From: Kondoa subrosea
Lineage: Eukaryota
Assembly: GCA_039545335.1 (NCBI GenBank)
Contig: BCIN01000001.1
Span: 1,596,604-1,660,603, forward strand
Reading direction: 5' to 3'
Length of the DNA: 64,000 bases
The position numbers were made by a program, and so were the translations under genes. Below are positions 6,099 to 17,402 of the stretch, in pieces (positions within the stretch are counted from its first letter, which is position 1; the number at the start of each line of letters is the position of its first letter). The notes below the pieces were generated by a model. The model searched no databases. It had not been told where the DNA came from and saw nothing but the letters and a program-made list of their open reading frames with translations.

Positions 6099-6898
6099 TT
6101 AACGTTCTGCAATGGGAGGCCTAGGTCTGCTGTTGTTTTCTGCTTCTAGAGTATCTGCTCCTATCGCTTGTCCTTCTTGCGCTACTTGCCCAACCACTCC
6201 GCTGATCAATTCCCTCAATTCAGCTTCTGGATCAGTCCCATCTCGCTCAGCTTTCATCATGATATCTTGTACTTGGTTCATCAAGGTAGAAGAAGATTGA
6301 TCAACGCTTCTGTCCAACTCCATATCCTGCTCATCTTCCGCTGAAGGCAAATCTATTTCTTCGCCTGTAACTGATGCTAGGTAGGCTGAAATAGAGGGAT
6401 TTTCTTCGAGAAGACGCTGTGCGGCCTGTACAAGTAGGTGTTTGAGTATTGAGAGACAACTTGCGGGACAAGTACATACAGTCTCGTCTTCTGAATTTCG
6501 ATGAGAAGCATTCGCTCCGAGTTCGATCAAAAGCTTTGCCATTTCCACATCTTCTACGACAAATAGAGCAGTCCTTTGTGTGGAAACTTGCATCAGCTCG
6601 CGTATATGAATGGCATACTTATATGGACTCACTCGCCATCTTCGTCTGTCACATTAATATCACCTCCGCGTTCAATGAGCAGCCTTAAAATAGCAGCATG
6701 ACCCCATGAAGCCGCAGCGTGAAAGGGAGTGTATGTATTTTCATCTTTTGCAGAAGGCGAAATCCCATGATCGAGCAATTCCTGTTTTGTCGCGAAACGA
6801 GCAAATTGGGCACTCTTCGACTTTGCAGCAGCATTTGATACACATACAGTCACGCGAGCTAGGTCCCCATTCGATGCGGCTGTCCAGATGTTGGCCAT
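6099..6898 (-). CDS. Small ankyrin-repeat protein
   Basis: MANIWTAASNGDLARV, DENTYTPFHAAASWGHAAILRLLIERGGDINVTDEDG, TALFVVEDVEMAKLLIELGA; acidic C-terminus. Confidence 0.9.
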
Positions 6899-7325
6899 TG
6901 GTCGCTATAATCCAATCTCGTATAATTCATTAAATCTTTTTGAAGCCTTCTCTCTCTCTTCGCTATAGTCGAGCTTTGGCATGACCAGGCTGGTCAAGAA
7001 TAGCTACGAGTAGGCGTTACTTCCCCTAGTCATTGGTCTCCTGCCGATTGGTGTGAAATGGCACTACACCAAAATTGCCTAATGCGACCAAATCTCTCAA
7101 GATCGCTTTTGGATATACGGAATTTATTTAGTCTGCCATCCCTAATTCAGTTGTCCCTGGTTCTGGACTTGACGATCCTTTCTTCTCTTTTCATTTATTC
7201 CTTTGTTCAGTAATCTCCCCCTTCTGAAAGTTTCTCCTCTTCGTTCTTTTCGCATACTTTCGTTAAGTAAAAACATACTGGTCCACCCACAATAGTCGCT
7301 CTCTACTGCGGTTCCATCTACCAAT

Positions 7326-10300
7326 ATGAAGGGTAGCTTATTTGCCAGCCTAGCGGTGCTGGTCACCATGGCTAAGGCTCATATGACCAGTCAGTCAAGC
7401 TTCACTAGAATGTTACCTCACTTGAATCATTGTGATTGCGCTGTCAGTCTACCATCCCTCTCAATACGGCTTCCCTAACTTCCCTGACGAGTAAGCTTTT
7501 TGTACTTGACAATTGCTTGACGTCAATCTCATGAAATTGCAACTAGCACTTTTGCACCTATGATTGTTCGTTACTTTGATGACACAAATGTCAACTACTT
7601 GTCTAAACAATAATACATACAGGATCGAGCATTCGATGATTGGTGGTTCAGAGGTTACCTAAAAACTGCACCTTGGACTGGAGGTGAAATTATGGAGCTT
7701 CCAGCCGGTCAGACTATTTCCACTGTTATCACTTGTCATATTGCTGTGAGTCTTTTTGCTTGACATTAACAGTTTGTGCCATGCTGATCACGTGACCGAT
7801 TAGTGGACACCTTGGGGTTGCTGCTACGAACCTACTGCATACGGAGCAATGGATGCTTGTCCTTCCGGTAGTGATTCAGGAGCCTGGCACAGTAACTTGG
7901 AACCACCTGCACCCGAACCAGTTTACGCTGGCACTTCTGGTTGCGCGCTCGGTATTGCTGATGTGGATGATCCCAACCTGGTCACTATGGATAATTTGGT
8001 CATCTTCTCTGTCAATTCACACTGTGTTTTCCAACGTGACACTAAATTCGATATTCCTGCGTGAGTTCGGCGTGCGGCGTCCCATCTTCATCTGGCTGAT
8101 CAGGTTGTTTTTAGTGCTATGCCTCCTTGTACTGGCAAGAAATGCGTTTGCGCTTGGTTCTGGCTTGCAAACTTCGGTCAAGCTGTGAGTATTAGTAATA
8201 TTGACTCTCACTTAGCTCTGACCTTTTGTCTTTGCAGAACTTTTATATGACTGGTTTCGATTGCACTGTTACTGGATTCCAAGCAATGACTAACAAGATC
8301 GGTGCTCCTCAGAAGCCAAAGTATGTTTCTTCAGCTGGATGATGATGTGGAGAGAAAGCTAAATTCCAATTTTTTTTTCTAGCATCGATGCGACTTGGCC
8401 TCAAGGTGCTAGTGGTCCGAGACAACCTTTCTATGCTTATAACGAGGGCGCAACGATCACCGTGATCGACAACGCAAATCGTATTGGTTATCACAAGGGC
8501 TTTGGGTGGACTGATGGTGCTCAAAACGATATGTATGTTCTACGCTTCATTTACTGCTGTCCGATCTCATGTCCTTTGACAGCTTCACCGGACCTCCTGT
8601 CGTCTCCAACATCACTGCTAAACCAGCCGGAGACAATGTTGCTCGACTTGCGACTGCCACCGCTTCATCTGCCGATTCCAGTCAACCCGCGAGCGCTGCT
8701 ATTGATGGAAACACCAACGGATGTAAGTTACTGCCTTTCGAGGCATTTCCGAGTACTCACAGCTTTTACAGGGCCCATCAACGGAACTGCTGAATGGTCT
8801 TCAGCTGGTCAACAAGCTGGTGCTTGGCTCAGATTGGACTGGACCGAGCCATATGTCATCAACTCTATTGTTCTATTCGATAGGCCCAACGGAAACGATT
8901 GGATTACTTCAGGAACAATTACCTTCTCCGACGGTTCTTCAGTCGCTGTTGGTTCACTCAGCAACTATGGCAGTCCTAGTCCTGTCGCGCTTTCGGCACC
9001 TGTCAATACTACCAGTCTTCTCTTACAAATCAACACCGTTGGCCCTAACACTTACAACGTTGGTTTGGCGGAAATTCAATGCTATGGTTCTTCAGCGAAA
9101 GCTCTTGCTGCGGCTGCTGCAGCTTCTAGTGCTCCAGCTTCATCTATGGCCATGTCCTCGGCAATGCCTTCAGCTTCAGCGGTATTCTCCAGCGTACAGT
9201 CGTCTTACGTCTCAGCCTCTATAGCTTCATCAGCAATGGTTTCTGCTCAATCATCCGCAGCTGCATCAATGTCCGCAATCGCAAGCAGCGCACCCGTTGT
9301 CTACACGCCCGCCAGCAATAATGTTGCAGGAATGGCTAGAATTGTTGCTTCTACTTGGTCACCGTACGGTACACCATTCGGTGCTATTGATACTGTTATC
9401 TCTGGTTGTACGTCTTCAAACCTACTCCTCGCCCAACTTTCGCTAACAGTCTCTTACTTCTGTAGACCCGAAGAACAGAACAGCTGAATGGACCTCCGCC
9501 CAGCAGAAAGCAGGAGCTTGGGTGCGCTTGAACTGGCCGGAACCGTACGTTGTCACCGGTCTAACATTGTTCGATCGACCAAATCTGGACGAGTAAGTTT
9601 TTCATGCTTTGCGAGCAACCCAACGTTTATATGACTCCTTCAGTCAAATATTGAGCGGCACTGCGACTTTCTCTGACGGCACTGTTGTTCAAGTCGGCAC
9701 TTTGGCAAACGATGGTTCAGCTAACCCAGTTTCTATGGATCCCGTTACGACTACAATGTTACGATTCACCGTCACTGCGGCTGGACCGAAAACCAACAAC
9801 ATCGGTCTTTCAGAAATTCAAGTTTGGGGTTACCCAGCAAGTGCATTGACTGCCTCCTCTACGATTGCATCCTCTACAGCTGCATCTTCTTCGGCTACAC
9901 CAAGCGCCAGCTCAGTGTCTAGCTCCTCACTCGTGTCCAGCTCCGCAATTATTTCTAGCTCCTCAGTCGTATCTAGCTCCGCAGTCGTCGCAAGTTCCTC
10001 TGTGGTGTCCAGTGTTGCTTCCAGTAGTACTGTCAGCTCTGTTGCTGCGCAGCAAACAGTATCATCAGACGCATCAATCCAATCCAACATCGCGTCTCTT
10101 GCGGTAGTCACTGCGTCATCGCAGACGACAAGAAGTCCAGCTGGCCGTGCTATTGACGGCGTTGTTGGCGGCTGTATGTTTCTCTCTCTTCAAAATTGAA
10201 ATTGCAGTACTCATCTTTCTGATAGATCCTCGAAACTCCTCGGCTGAATGGTCTTCCGCTTATCAAGGTGCTGGAGCTTGGATCAAATTATCCTTTGACA

Positions 10301-11827
10301 CTAGCTACACTATCAATTCGGTCAATCTCTATGACAGGCCAAATCTTGATGAGTGAGCAGCCTTCATGCTCTACCGTATATGTATTGAGACTCTCTGTCT
10401 CTTTTAGTTGGGTACTTGCCGGAACTTTAACTTTCTCTGATGGATCCACGACTTCTTTCGGCGCTCTCGATAATTCAGGCAATTGGACAACCGTCTCTTT
10501 CTCTCCAGTCACTACCACATCAGTACTCCTGACCATCACTCAAGTTGCGGGCTCAACGAAGAACATCGGTCTCTCAGAGATTCAGGTTATCGGTACTGTT
10601 GCAAGCGCAGCTTCTTCATCTTCATCAGCTTCGCAATCAGTAACTCCATCTAGTCTCGCTGCAGCTGCTGCCGTGACGCAATCCAGCTCCTCGTCAGTAT
10701 TGGCTCAGTCAAGCTCTTCTTCATCTGCCAGCTCAACTCAAGTCGCTTCCAAGTCTAGCAGCTCGGTTGCCGTTCCTTCGTCTTCATCATCATCTTCAAG
10801 CAAGAGTATCGCGCAGGCTACTTCAAGTTCATCTAGTTCAAGCTCGTCCAGTGTTACAGCTACCAGCTCATCCGCAAACGTTGCTGCTGCACCTGCAGCC
10901 ACGACTCTGTCGTTCGACTCAAGCTCTGGTCAATCTGACATTGCTTCATTGTCAACTGTTACTGCGTCGTCCTACGATCCTGCGTCACCTCCTGGAGCAG
11001 TCATTGATACTGTTGTCAGTGGATGTGAGTTATCGTTTACCTTATGGACAGGAGAATATACTAATGTTTCTGCTTCAGATCCTCGCAATGCATCTGCGGA
11101 ATGGTCATCCAGTGGCGAAGGAGCTGGTGCTTGGGTCAAACTTGTTTGGGATCAACCATACCTCATCAACTCAATCGCTCTATACGATCGACCCAATCCA
11201 AACGAGTGAGCTTCCTTCCGCATACCTAAGCGATGTTTGCTTATATTTTTGATCGTAGTCAAGTATTATCTGGCACCATTACCTTCTCCGATGGGTCAAG
11301 TGTTCAAGTTGGAACTCTAGACAACGGAGGAGCCATGACAAAAGTACCCATGTCTCAAGTCACCACAACCTCCCTCTTGTTCACTGTGGGATCAGTTTCT
11401 GGCAAGACACAGGCCATTGGTCTAGCAGGTAAGCACCGCGTTGCCTTTCATTGATAAAACCTTATATCTTCCCGCAGAAATGGTTGTTATGGGATCTCCT
11501 GCCAAGATAGTCAAATCTACAGCAACTCCACAAGCTACTTCAAATTCGAGCTCCTCTTCACCAGCAGTCGCCACAAAGACTTCTTCAGCTGACGCCAAAG
11601 CTGCTGCTTCCTCTACTAACGTCGGAGCTCCATCAAGCACAGTAGCAGCAACTTCGCAATCAAGGAACGCTCCACCCGGCAAACGATCTGAAAATGCTTC
11701 GGAAGCTGTCTTTGATGGGGAAGAAGCTCTTCAAGAACGTATGCTTCAAGGTCTAATGTGGCATGACAATGCCTTCGAAGAACGTCAAATTGAAGATGAT
11801 AGTGCTTTCATGAACTTCATCTCGTGA
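7326..11827 (+). CDS. Secreted AA14-like lytic polysaccharide monooxygenase domain plus four tandem discoidin/galactose-binding-like domains with Ser/Ala-rich linkers
   Basis: Signal peptide MKGSLFASLAVLVTMAKA, then mature His1 (HMTIYHPSQYGF after splicing). Motifs DDWWFRG, ELPAG, GAWH, GCALGIAD, VIFSVNSHCV, MPPCTGKKCVCAWFWLA, NFYMTGFDC, DGAQNDIF. Followed by four repeats of EWSS..GAW..L.W..DRPN..GT.TFSDG..GL.EI. Confidence 0.85.
8630..11495 (+). repeat. Four intragenic repeats of a ~130-aa beta-sandwich-like domain (about 8630-9090, 9315-9830, 10080-10595, 10930-11495)
   Basis: Each copy has N/D-I/V-A..A...ASS/T...A.ID...G, AEW-S/T-S, GAW, DRPN, TFSDG and IGL/VGL-A/S-E, separated by Ser/Ala low-complexity linkers. 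Confidence 0.9.
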
Positions 11828-12179
11828 GGGAAAAGCACGGAGAAGATTTAGAAACAGATCGGGAAAGCGAAGTGGTTGTACCATATGGACTATCTGTCGT
11901 GCCTTTTCGTTACCGTTAAATAGATTTTGAATTATTTATTGTTCTATTGCAAATGTACATGACTTACTACTGTTGACTTCGTGCTCTATCATGCTGTCGC
12001 GTACATGAATGCCTCCGAGCTTCAATGGAGTACGAATCAAGTCACATCACAATTCAATCAGAATAATCAGAATCCATTTCACAATGCATTGGTATAGACA
12101 AGACGAAAGACTGTAGCACATCTACCGCAATGGAAAGCAATAGAAGATCGACAAAAAGAGCTTGAAAGAAGTACAACTC

Positions 12180-14506: not shown

Positions 14507-17208
14507 TCAGCGTCCGTTGACTGTATCTCCCGTCTTGACCTCCTCCAACAATCTAGTAAGCAAAGCTTGTATCGAATCACAAGTCTTTTGTACATTCTCT
14601 ACCCTATTCGCTAAATCACTGTTGCTAGCTGAAGTATTAGTCACCACTGTTTTAAGTTCCGCCGCTTCAGTTTCATTGAACGCTAAAGAAGGTAAGAAAT
14701 GTTGAAGAGCGTTGACGAAACCTGATCTGGTTACTGATTTGACCGGTGTGAGGGGTGATTTGGCAGAAGGAGTGGGAGGTGAGCGACCAGTTTCATTGAC
14801 GTGCAGTTCAAAGAATCTTTCAGCCAGCGATTCGGTGCGAGAGGAAGTCATTCGAGAGATCTGATCCGGTAGTCGGATCGCGTCGGCATAGTGATTTGAA
14901 GATTGCATCCGTGCATGAGCTGCTAGTAGAAGGAGGATTGGGAAGCTTGTAAGTTTGACAAAGAAGACGTGTACTTTGTGCAGGCTCCGGAATGCTCAGA
15001 GCTGTAACAAAGGCAATAAGAAATGAACTTACTATCGCGGCGTAAGAATAAATCTTAGAGGGAAGACACTATGCAGATACATCAGTTGCTACTCATCTGA
15101 ATGTTGCTTCGGAACCTACAAGATCAGCGCCAGCACGTTTGCAGGAGGTATATATTCTGTTCGAACGTTCAGCTTTTTTACAGCACGGCAAGACCAGACT
15201 ACTCACCTAATAAGGCATCAGCTTTGAGCCGCTCGAAGGTCTTGACGGCTTTCTCGAAAAGATACTCCTGAGTAGCGCCCCTCTGAACCTTAGCGAAAGT
15301 GTCACTCAAAATCGCAATCAAGATGGTGATTAGCAGGATATTGGTGTAGCTTGCAAAGAGAGTCATAATAACCGCTAGCCAGACTAGTGAACCTTGGTGT
15401 GAAGCAGTAACGACAGTTGACTTACGTCCGAAAACTGGGTGATACTCTTCGGCGACCTCGAAACCTAAGAACGAAGAACCAAACCAGATTCTAAGCAGCA
15501 GCCAAGATATATGGCCAATGGTGTGTTTCTTGTCGCTGAGAATCCACAAGGCGAAGAGAAAGCCCTGCGAAATACAGCTCATTTCCCATTTTTTGATATG
15601 AAGAAGACAGACGTACAGAGCAGCTGACGCCCGCAACGAACATGAAATAAACAAACTGAGTCATCAAGCTTTGCAATCCCATAAATACGATATTGCTACT
15701 GATCAACGATCCGGCCAGACGCTACAGCTCGATATCAGCAAGTTATACGTATCCCAAAAAGAGACCACAGAAGACCTACAGGTAACAGAATCGTAGCAGA
15801 GGCTGCGAGAAGCTTGAAAGCCAAAAGGGACAGGTCATCTCGATGATGTACGATTCCGATCAGACGCAAAACGCTGGCCAGTGCGTCAGCAACAGTAATT
15901 ACTGTTGCAGACACAGCTTACAGGTAGCCCATGAAGATCAACAAATACATAACGTCCACATCTACACGAAGGTCAGTCCAATCCTTGGTAATCTCGGGTT
16001 TCGGCTAACAGTTCCATGCTGAATTAAAGTATGTATCACTGAATAGCAGAAACATCAGCGCAGACTGATGTGAGTAGCCGAAATAGCGCACTTGAAGAAT
16101 TGGCAAGCTTCGTCGATGATAAAGCCTAAAGTCCAACAAGAGAAGGCGATTTCCCATCCAGTCACGGCCAGCGTATTTTGGGCTGGACAATCGATATCAG
16201 CTGATGTCACACCAATATAGAGCACACCTACTGGAAAGGAAAGTCATAAACAGTACGAGCATAATGCAGCTGCCCAAATAGTTTCAGCAAGAGTCGAGCT
16301 GCTGGAACAATGACTAACAAATTGATTGATTCCAGTGCTACACGAATTCTTGGTACTCTCAATCGATAGTGGTCGAAGATGGGACTTGCATGGGCATCGT
16401 AGCGTTGAGCAGTTCTGAGCTTGTAATTATCTTCAATAAAGCTGATACGTGCCGCTGGCAGGTAGGTGATGTCACCCTGTATGATCAGATGCGTCAGTTC
16501 ATATGCTCTTAAGCTACCACACTAGTATTCACCTCATAGATAAGATTTATCAAGGCCTGGATGATAGGAGCAGCAATAAACGCTTTCGCTTCGCATTGGA
16601 TAGCCAGTTCTAAAGCATTGCTTGCAGCTTTCCAGCCGTCTTCTTGTAGCCTGGAACCACCATGTATTAGCTTGAGAAAGATGAAACATTAAGCAAAGAC
16701 ACACTCATGCCATGAGTAGTCTGATACATTGTCCTGCAGCATATCTCGCTCTGATCCAGTCATAGCATTGTACTGAGTAGTCAAGACGTTGGCTAGATCC
16801 ATTGAGAAGCTCGGGAGTTGGTACTCTGCTTGACAATCAATATGCGAGTTGCACCAAGTAGACAAAGGACGAACGAGAGGCAAGCCGTATACATAGTAGC
16901 TCGCATACATCCGCTCTCGTGACTTGCAACAGCGAAGTAGCGACGTCGCCCTCTGCGTCGCGAAGGAAAGCAACTCGATTGAAAAGAAGGCAGAAGAAAA
17001 GAGCTGGAGAGCTTTGACGGAAGATATTGTCTTTCAGCGGTCTGAGGACAGTCAGGTCGAAGCTGACTCCTCTGAGCTCGTTGATTTCATAGACTTCGGT
17101 GACATAATGTGAGACAGAGCTGCGGATGTGATGAATCAACTGGAAGCACGGCTCTTGTGTAGTTGAGAGAGCTGAGGACGCGGCAGCTGAAGTTTTGGAG
17201 TTGGCCAT
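14507..17208 (-). CDS. Fungal TRP-like (Yvc1-related) non-selective cation channel
   Basis: N-terminal LRPL..FCLLFNRVAFLRDA..TRADVCELL; ALELAIQCEAKAFI; RLRVPRIR; pore/S6 region IWFGSSFLGFEVAEEYHPVFG..YTNILLITILIAILSDTFAKV..QEYLF; coiled-coil tail. Confidence 0.85.
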
Positions 17209-17402
17209 TGATATGATATGATATGATATGGTAACGGAGCAAACCAGTAAAACACCGGCACCGTATAACAATCTATTGCAAGCAAAAAAGATACGCGAAC
17301 AAAGCGGGGGTCTTCCAGCAGCGACGAGAGGCAGGAGCTTGTGAGTCCCAGGATTGCTGTATGACACCTATTGAATTCAAATGGATCATCAGGAAAGCCT
17401 CA

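Follow-up and report, generated by a model that had tools for sequence, protein, structure and literature searches.

A Kondoa subrosea gene joining an AA14 domain to four DUF7402 modules, a putative glycan-binding array

A single gene for an AA14 domain and four DUF7402 modules

We analysed a 64,000-nucleotide stretch of the Kondoa subrosea genome (GenBank assembly GCA_039545335.1, contig BCIN01000001.1, positions 1,596,604–1,660,603 of the forward strand; hereafter the window). Positions 7326–11827 of the window, on the forward strand, hold one intron-rich fungal gene of 17 exons with a single open frame of 1,210 amino acids (aa), which encodes, in order, an 18-aa putative signal peptide, a lytic polysaccharide monooxygenase (LPMO) domain of family AA14, four DUF7402 modules of approximately 140 aa separated by linkers, and a 111-aa tail. 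Translation starts at ATG 7326 (the first in-frame ATG 3′ of an upstream stop) and ends at the stop codon 11825–11827; all 16 introns are GT–AG and 49–62 nucleotides (nt) long. Splice signals, an uninterrupted frame and homology (colinear blastp) underlie the gene model. The splice search, with 16 donor sites and permitted intron lengths of 40–110 nt, gave open-frame models, of which the one with the shortest introns was chosen, and the acceptor of intron 9 was set by hand at 8771, yielding NG|WP where the other three repeats have SG|YP or GG|YP. Pfam, profile and structure searches were run on exon pieces or on homologs, and the whole spliced protein was used only in local comparisons. The features of the gene are as follows.

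7326..11827 (+): coding region including the stop codon (splice-site search, open frame, blastp colinearity with homologs)
7326–7389, 7448–7490, 7547–7565, 7623–7745, 7804–8060, 8115–8184 (+): exons 1–6 (splice model)
8238–8320, 8383–8532, 8583–8722, 8772–9407, 9466–9592, 9644–10173 (+): exons 7–12 (splice model)
10226–10352, 10408–11024, 11079–11205, 11259–11428, 11478–11827 (+): exons 13–17 (splice model)
7326..7379 (+): putative signal peptide, 18 aa, ending A-K-A (read from the sequence)
7380..8589 (+): AA14 LPMO catalytic domain, residues 19–272, eight introns (PF22810, 5NO7 profile match, column conservation)
8614..9082 (+): DUF7402 module 1, residues 281–420, one intron, 8723–8771 (PF24135 E 6.9e-38 at 8774–9409; AlphaFold2 (AF2) model)
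9083..9298 (+): linker 1, 72 aa with 25 Ser and 24 Ala (sequence)
9299..9827 (+): DUF7402 module 2, residues 493–632, two introns (PF24135 E 1.8e-13 and 7.5e-22 on two exon pieces; repeat alignment)
9828..10064 (+): linker 2, 79 aa with 36 Ser (sequence)
10065..10591 (+): DUF7402 module 3, residues 712–851, two introns (PF24135 E 1.3e-12 and 5.6e-18; repeat alignment)
10592..10915 (+): linker 3, 108 aa with 51 Ser (sequence)
10916..11491 (+): DUF7402 module 4, residues 960–1099, three introns (PF24135 E 2.7e-14 and 2.3e-16; repeat alignment)
11492..11824 (+): C-terminal tail, 111 aa, with a Ser/Ala/Thr-rich stretch, a KR site and an acidic end (sequence)

By blastp, the spliced protein is colinear with the database proteins P0007, P0152, P0154 and P0163 from the AA14 domain through the first DUF7402 module (42–47% identity over 438–511 residues), and this colinear identity, together with the Pfam E-values, cannot be chance. 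The end of the AA14 domain (...DGAQNDIF) and the start of module 1 are approximately 10 residues apart, with one 50-nt intron (8533–8582) between them, and the same fusion is present in independent annotations of other genomes; on these sequence grounds, the AA14 part and the DUF7402 repeats belong to a single gene, which is the only reasonable reading. That the splice model wrongly joined two adjacent genes, one for AA14 and one for the repeats, is highly improbable: the junction of the predicted fusion does rest on that model and the intron lies exactly at the domain boundary, but, besides the shortness of the gap, exon 9 (8583–8722) has no in-frame start codon and no space for a promoter, no stop interrupts the frame across the 16 consistent GT–AG introns, and both domains were detected by Pfam in 23 proteins from independently annotated genomes and by our own hidden Markov models (HMMs) in three more. 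The first-pass annotation, made from the letters alone, had likewise placed the catalytic part and the repeats in one gene.

The AA14 domain and its relatives

The same annotation had proposed an AA14 enzyme on the basis of a His exposed after a leader ending A-K-A, a second His in GAWH and a Tyr in NFYMTGF, and each of these putative copper-ligand codons lies where it was placed (His19, CAT, 7380–7382; His112, CAC, 7888–7890; Tyr195, TAT, 8244–8246). Four of 13 exon pieces matched PF22810 (LPMO_AA14), with 34.4, 33.1, 24.3 and 14.3 bits (cut-off 27, passed by two), and neither the Tyr-bearing piece nor the C-terminal tail piece had a relevant Pfam match; the colinear homologs score 142–211 bits. 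A profile of 13 relatives matched PDB entry 5NO7, the only solved AA14 structure, at E 9.2e-49, with His1, His99 and Tyr176 falling on the conserved H, H and Y. When the spliced protein was aligned with 31 homologs, residues 19, 112 and 195 occupied the ligand columns: the second His is conserved in all homologs aligned over its column (27/27), and, among the 26 homologs with a clean alignment at the Tyr column, 24 have Tyr and two have Phe. Passages of PMC10885436 describe the His/His/Tyr triad as the conserved copper site of AA14. The assignment of the catalytic domain to AA14 is supported by these comparisons.

His19 directly follows the hydrophobic 18-aa leader, as read from the sequence rather than with a dedicated predictor. 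A hydrophobic N terminus followed by (A/G)|H was found in 16 of the 31 aligned homologs, and a leader followed by His in 11 of 12 further proteins examined, including nine of ten that bear DUF7402. The protein is predicted to be secreted, with a mature chain that would expose His1 after cleavage, and the AA14 domain would bind copper and catalyse oxidation. Six homologs (P0003, P0010, P0018, P0020, P0025 and P0149) are annotated from a Met immediately after His1 (MSIW..., MTIW..., MSPF...). These models look truncated, with the leader exon, and hence both the signal peptide and the catalytic His1, missed; public gene models of this AA14 subclade thus appear often to lack the signal peptide and His1.

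The LPMO fold was tested on the closest long homolog, P0007 (47% identity over 459 residues), in place of the window protein. An AF2 model of P0007 has a mean predicted local distance difference test score (pLDDT) of 61.5, lowered by the linkers; by 10-residue blocks, most of its two DUF7402 domains reach 80–97 and many blocks of the AA14 core 70–93. Foldseek aligned the AA14 part of this model with 5NO7 at E 2e-16 and a template modelling (TM) score of 0.71–0.73 on the target, which bears out, at the level of a modelled homolog, the LPMO fold of the catalytic domain. In PcAA14B/PcoAA14A of Pycnoporus coccineus (5NO7), His1 comes directly after a signal peptide, as predicted for the window protein, and the His/His/Tyr site is the same; the identity between 5NO7 and the modelled homolog is only approximately 30%. 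Among the AA14 proteins described, the C-terminal extension is either absent or disordered, in contrast to the window protein with its four modules predicted to be folded β-sandwiches.

The AA14+DUF7402 architecture is not peculiar to the window gene but recurs across Microbotryomycetes. Besides the window protein, 26 database proteins combine AA14 with one to four DUF7402 repeats; all of the named holders are Microbotryomycetes, and the entries are hypothetical or named only after a domain. A search with an AA14 exon gave 28 relatives, 12 of them with DUF7402, and one more came from a further homology search, which covered proteins of 1,139–3,250 aa and missed those of 580–1,139 aa, a gap partly made up by the search of representatives. 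A Pfam scan confirmed one to four DUF7402 copies in 13 proteins, with four copies in P0010 and P0149. Searching 1.84 billion representatives with an AA14 profile gave 679 AA14 proteins (E ≤ 0.001). Of the 150 hits listed, 30 of the longer ones were scanned with Pfam, which found DUF7402 in 10, AA14 only in 17, and three WSC domains, PAN and UBX/UBA in one each, the last being probably a fused gene model. Names were found for eight of nine DUF7402-bearing AA14 proteins looked up (Rhodotorula, Sporobolomyces, Rhodosporidiobolus and Meredithblackwellia). For Meredithblackwellia, Pseudohyphozyma and Rhodosporidiobolus, a lineage check confirmed the placement in Microbotryomycetes, and we take the other named holder genera to belong there as well. 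This survey bears on a first-pass suggestion that the architecture be followed across fungi, and the source of the window gene is a Microbotryomycetes-like basidiomycete.

The closest counterparts in architecture and AA14 subclade are P0010 (Rhodotorula paludigena, 1,147 aa, four repeats), P0149 (Rhodotorula kratochvilovae, four repeats) and P0163 (Meredithblackwellia eburnea, one repeat); the Microbotryomycetes AA14+DUF7402 proteins share 42–50% identity with the window protein in the best local blastp alignment. In a catalytic-domain tree of 113 AA14 proteins, 24 DUF7402-bearing members fall in a 53-tip clade, mixed with 29 that lack the module, and form nine separate pure groups; some of the module-less neighbours are labelled partial at source.

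The occurrence of CBM1 on some AA14 proteins, as given in the first-pass annotation, did not hold, as passages of the literature state that none has CBM1 (PMC10885436) and that, alone among LPMO families, AA14 lacks carbohydrate-binding modules (CBMs), having disordered C-terminal regions instead (bioRxiv 10.1101/2025.11.04.686606). In PMC8615602, 72% of the C-terminal regions of AA14 proteins are assigned to the class ‘UNK’. P0273 (Kwoniella dejecticola) and P0269 carry AA14 with other folded domains, namely three WSC domains and PAN domains, and DUF7402 is therefore not the sole exception to the statement that AA14 tails are only disordered. Our literature searches found no description of the AA14+DUF7402 architecture, although they did not cover the supplements of AA14 surveys (including PMC8615602), which may list such sequences uncommented; nor did any of the papers listed on AA14, LPMOs and CBMs mention discoidin. 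Among the listed papers, the one that names both AA14 and Microbotryomycetes taxa counts AA14 as a xylan enzyme in a Phenoliferia genome. The window protein represents a subclade of AA14 whose module array is unclassified and probably binds carbohydrate, an architecture present but unremarked in public databases.

DUF7402 modules and their partners

Seven exon pieces matched PF24135 (DUF7402), with E-values from 6.9e-38 to 1.3e-12 and scores that all exceed the 27-bit cut-off; they assemble into four copies, in agreement with the four DUF7402-like repeats on Ser/Ala-rich linkers described in the first-pass annotation. The four repeats are 46–59% identical to one another over 139–140 aligned residues, and the linkers of 72, 79 and 108 aa consist mostly of Ser and Ala. 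Two introns, one following SG|YP and the other NLD|D, recur in modules 2–4 with the same position and phase, whereas module 1 has only the first (8723–8771):

9408–9465, 9593–9643, 10174–10225, 10353–10407, 11025–11078, 11206–11258 (+): introns of modules 2–4

This pattern is consistent with DNA-level tandem duplication once the introns had been gained. Modules 2–4 group together (support 0.67) in a tree of 383 DUF7402 domains, which suggests, from sequence, that they arose by internal duplication.

Window module 1 was modelled with AF2 from 8774–9100, which leaves out about 35 residues at the start of the domain; the mean pLDDT is 87.6. Foldseek searches with this partial domain gave discoidin, CBM32 and F-type lectin structures with TM scores on the query (TMq) of 0.6–0.73 overall: 0.73 for the CASPR2 discoidin domain 5Y4M, 0.65–0.68 for CBM32s (2V72, 0.65) and 0.63–0.67 for F-lectins (3CQO, 0.67; 1K12, 0.63). 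The DUF7402 domains of P0007 aligned with the lectinolysin F-lectin 3LEI (TM 0.76, root-mean-square deviation 2.9), the NanJ CBM32 2V72 (0.74) and the chitosan-binding CBM32 4ZZ5 (0.74), and also with coagulation factor C domains and neuropilin b domains. These models support well a fold class of discoidin/CBM32/F-lectin-type β-sandwiches, predicted to be galactose-binding-domain-like, and so uphold the fold proposed in the first-pass annotation. CBM32 and the F-type lectins (CBM47-like; 2V72, 4ZZ5, 3LEI and 1K12), which share the fold class, occur, like DUF7402, as accessory modules of carbohydrate-active enzymes, but their sequence identity to DUF7402 is only 12–20%. In PDB sequence searches, module 1 gave only matches at E 0.13–0.69 (FBP32, the CASPR2 discoidin domain and retinoschisin), and a bacterial PIG-L+DUF7402 protein gave nothing at E 0.001 or better. 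In the literature searched, DUF7402 is mentioned in one paper, as a predicted K+ site.

The C-terminal tail has no hydrophobic end of the glycosylphosphatidylinositol (GPI) type, no Pfam family and no significant match among the collected relatives. A motif, (R/H)(H/P)xRDF, lies 9–70 residues from the C terminus in 18 AA14+DUF7402 homologs (for example, P0007, P0011, P0149 and P0153). All of its carriers bear DUF7402; the window protein lacks it and has instead an acidic tail after the KR site.

DUF7402 is shared with enzymes of another kind. With module 1 as query, 196 proteins passed E 0.001 (120 of them listed); actinobacterial proteins are among them, in line with the first-pass annotation. 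PIG-L (PF02585, a CE14-type N-deacetylase) is present in 93 of the 120 listed DUF7402 proteins, from bacteria and from the same fungi; the remaining 27 include proteins with GDSL/SGNH esterase, amidase_2, GH29 fucosidase and CotH domains as well as module-only proteins. Bacterial holders include Microbacterium, Streptomyces, Actinoplanes and Modestobacter, and the fungal holders in this search were Pseudohyphozyma, Meredithblackwellia, Rhodotorula and Rhodosporidiobolus. Tandem arrays predominate, with two to five copies in 105 of the 107 listed proteins not labelled fungal and three to eight in the 13 fungal PIG-L-type proteins. In all four proteins examined (two fungal, two bacterial), PIG-L is N-terminal and is followed by the DUF7402 array, and nine of 12 fungal PIG-L proteins have a signal-like leader, as judged by reading. 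The layout of these (LmbE/CE14-type) PIG-L+DUF7402 proteins, such as P0033 and P0036, is the same as in the window protein—a catalytic domain and then an array, with repeats approximately 50% identical to those of the window—but they have a metal-dependent deacetylase where the window protein has a putative copper oxidase. P0036 (Meredithblackwellia; secreted PIG-L with five DUF7402 modules) is colinear end to end with P0033 (Microbacterium), at 38% identity over 1,137 columns; from this sequence comparison, the pair is a candidate for inter-kingdom gene transfer into Microbotryomycetes.

The repeat phylogeny against bacterial homologs that the first-pass annotation had called for placed all 28 AA14-linked modules, 19 fungal PIG-L-linked modules and three others in one 50-tip clade (support 0.83). 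This fits shuffling of the module between AA14 and PIG-L within the fungal lineage, although a short domain with weak inner supports provides no proof. The fungal clade of AA14- and PIG-L-linked modules was thus recovered, but the direction of transfer was not proven: we rejected the domain tree as proof of direction, given 14 bacteria-free fungal clades, a midpoint root and several weak supports.

The surroundings of the gene were also inspected. A tblastn search with seven proteins gave 187 matches in the window, none of them outside 7300–11850; there are no further AA14, DUF7402 or PIG-L copies in the window and therefore no tandem cluster. The neighbours give no functional context, and no carbohydrate-active gene cluster surrounds the LPMO gene in the window:

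714–2003, 15199–15660, 16837–17367 (−): DEAD-box helicase and pieces of a YVC1/TRPY1-type calcium channel (Pfam)
6629–6904 (−): frame just upstream of the gene, ankyrin-repeat-like by eye
6099–6653: adjacent frame with no Pfam family

Possible function of the array

We consider it likely that the DUF7402 array provides multivalent glycan attachment for a secreted copper enzyme of family AA14, because of the modelled fold of the repeats and the company of carbohydrate-acting catalytic domains that the module keeps. Removal of the 18-aa signal peptide would leave a mature chain starting with His; this His1, the second His (112 in the precursor) and Tyr195 would form a copper histidine brace that performs O2/H2O2-dependent oxidative chemistry. 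The four modules, predicted to be galactose-binding-domain-like β-sandwiches akin to discoidin, CBM32 and F-type lectins, would be spaced by the long Ser/Ala-rich linkers, which are probably O-glycosylated, and together would form a multivalent arm that binds glycans and keeps the catalytic domain at the surface of a polysaccharide. The principle—a copper domain, a flexible linker and binding modules—is the same as in the multimodular LPMOs described in parts of the literature (AA9 with CBM1, AA10 with CBMs, AA15 with WSC or glycoside hydrolase domains), although these belong to other LPMO families and the module of the window protein is unclassified and present in four copies.

Several points weigh against this reading. 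The Foldseek E-values for module 1, a partial domain, are all 1e-3 or weaker. The same fold also binds protein or lipid (coagulation factor C domains, neuropilin, APC10/DOC), and the fold alone is therefore no proof of glycan binding. The fucose motif of F-lectins consists of His, Arg and Arg, and in this form it is not evident in module 1, in which a single Arg aligns. Module 1 scores 28.0 bits against F5/8 type C (PF00754), below the cut-off of 28.2, a cut-off that some homologs pass as whole proteins; membership of DUF7402 in CBM32, CBM47 or PF00754 is not supported. Finally, the substrate of AA14 and its LPMO activity on plant polysaccharides are disputed in passages of bioRxiv 10.1101/2025.11.04.686606 and PMC11822852: the original xylan activity was not reproduced and the family is called enigmatic, and PMC11822852 states that the substrate remains unknown. 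Carbohydrate binding by the repeats is something that we infer from the modelled fold and from the enzymes that carry the module.

It is possible, if rather unlikely, that the array ties the enzyme to the wall or extracellular matrix of the fungus itself, and not to a foreign substrate, and that AA14 remodels the polymers of its own wall or handles copper at the cell surface; the difference from attachment to a glycan in general lies only in the target of the array. The named holders, all Microbotryomycetes, are mostly yeasts with a few anther smuts and no wood decayers, and the same array occurs on secreted PIG-L-type deacetylases in the same genomes, which fits a common N-acetylated wall polymer. 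GPI anchors and possible wall attachment have been reported for AA14 tails in part of the literature, and passages of bioRxiv 10.1101/2025.11.04.686606 and PMC11822852 report no plant substrate for AA14. However, binding of wall glycans by DUF7402 is itself inferred, DUF7402 arrays are common in bacteria, so the ligand would not be specific to fungal walls, and the window protein has no GPI-type end.

An improbable alternative is that the AA14-like domain only binds copper, as do the X325 LPMO-like proteins, and that the repeats serve another role. Cleavage of polysaccharides by AA14 went undetected according to passages of bioRxiv 10.1101/2025.11.04.686606 and PMC11822852, as a non-catalytic copper protein would predict; but all three histidine-brace residues of 5NO7 are conserved, AA14 enzymes both produce and use up H2O2, as LPMOs do (introduction of bioRxiv 10.1101/2025.11.04.686606), and lectin-like fusions are typical of glycan-acting enzymes.

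Glycan attachment by the array, the reading that we favour, can be extended to a more doubtful and tentative proposal. DUF7402 might be a CBM family not yet classified, with a ligand that is also the natural substrate of AA14 enzymes, at least in this lineage. Secreted PIG-L N-deacetylases of the same fungi bear the same array, so oxidase and deacetylase might act together on one N-acetylated polymer (chitin/chitosan or another amino-sugar glycan of the fungal wall), and the subclade would then be wall-active, not xylan-active. The array itself might have come from bacteria on a PIG-L gene into an ancestor of Microbotryomycetes and have been shuffled onto AA14 afterwards.

An AA14 subclade with one to four folded lectin-like modules offers an experimental handle on the question of the AA14 substrate, as the ligand of the modules would point to a possible substrate of the AA14 domain. 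DUF7402 would also become a candidate for a new CBM family. The occurrence of one module on both secreted PIG-L deacetylases and AA14 suggests a two-enzyme system on one polymer, with a possible bacterial-to-fungal transfer followed by domain shuffling.

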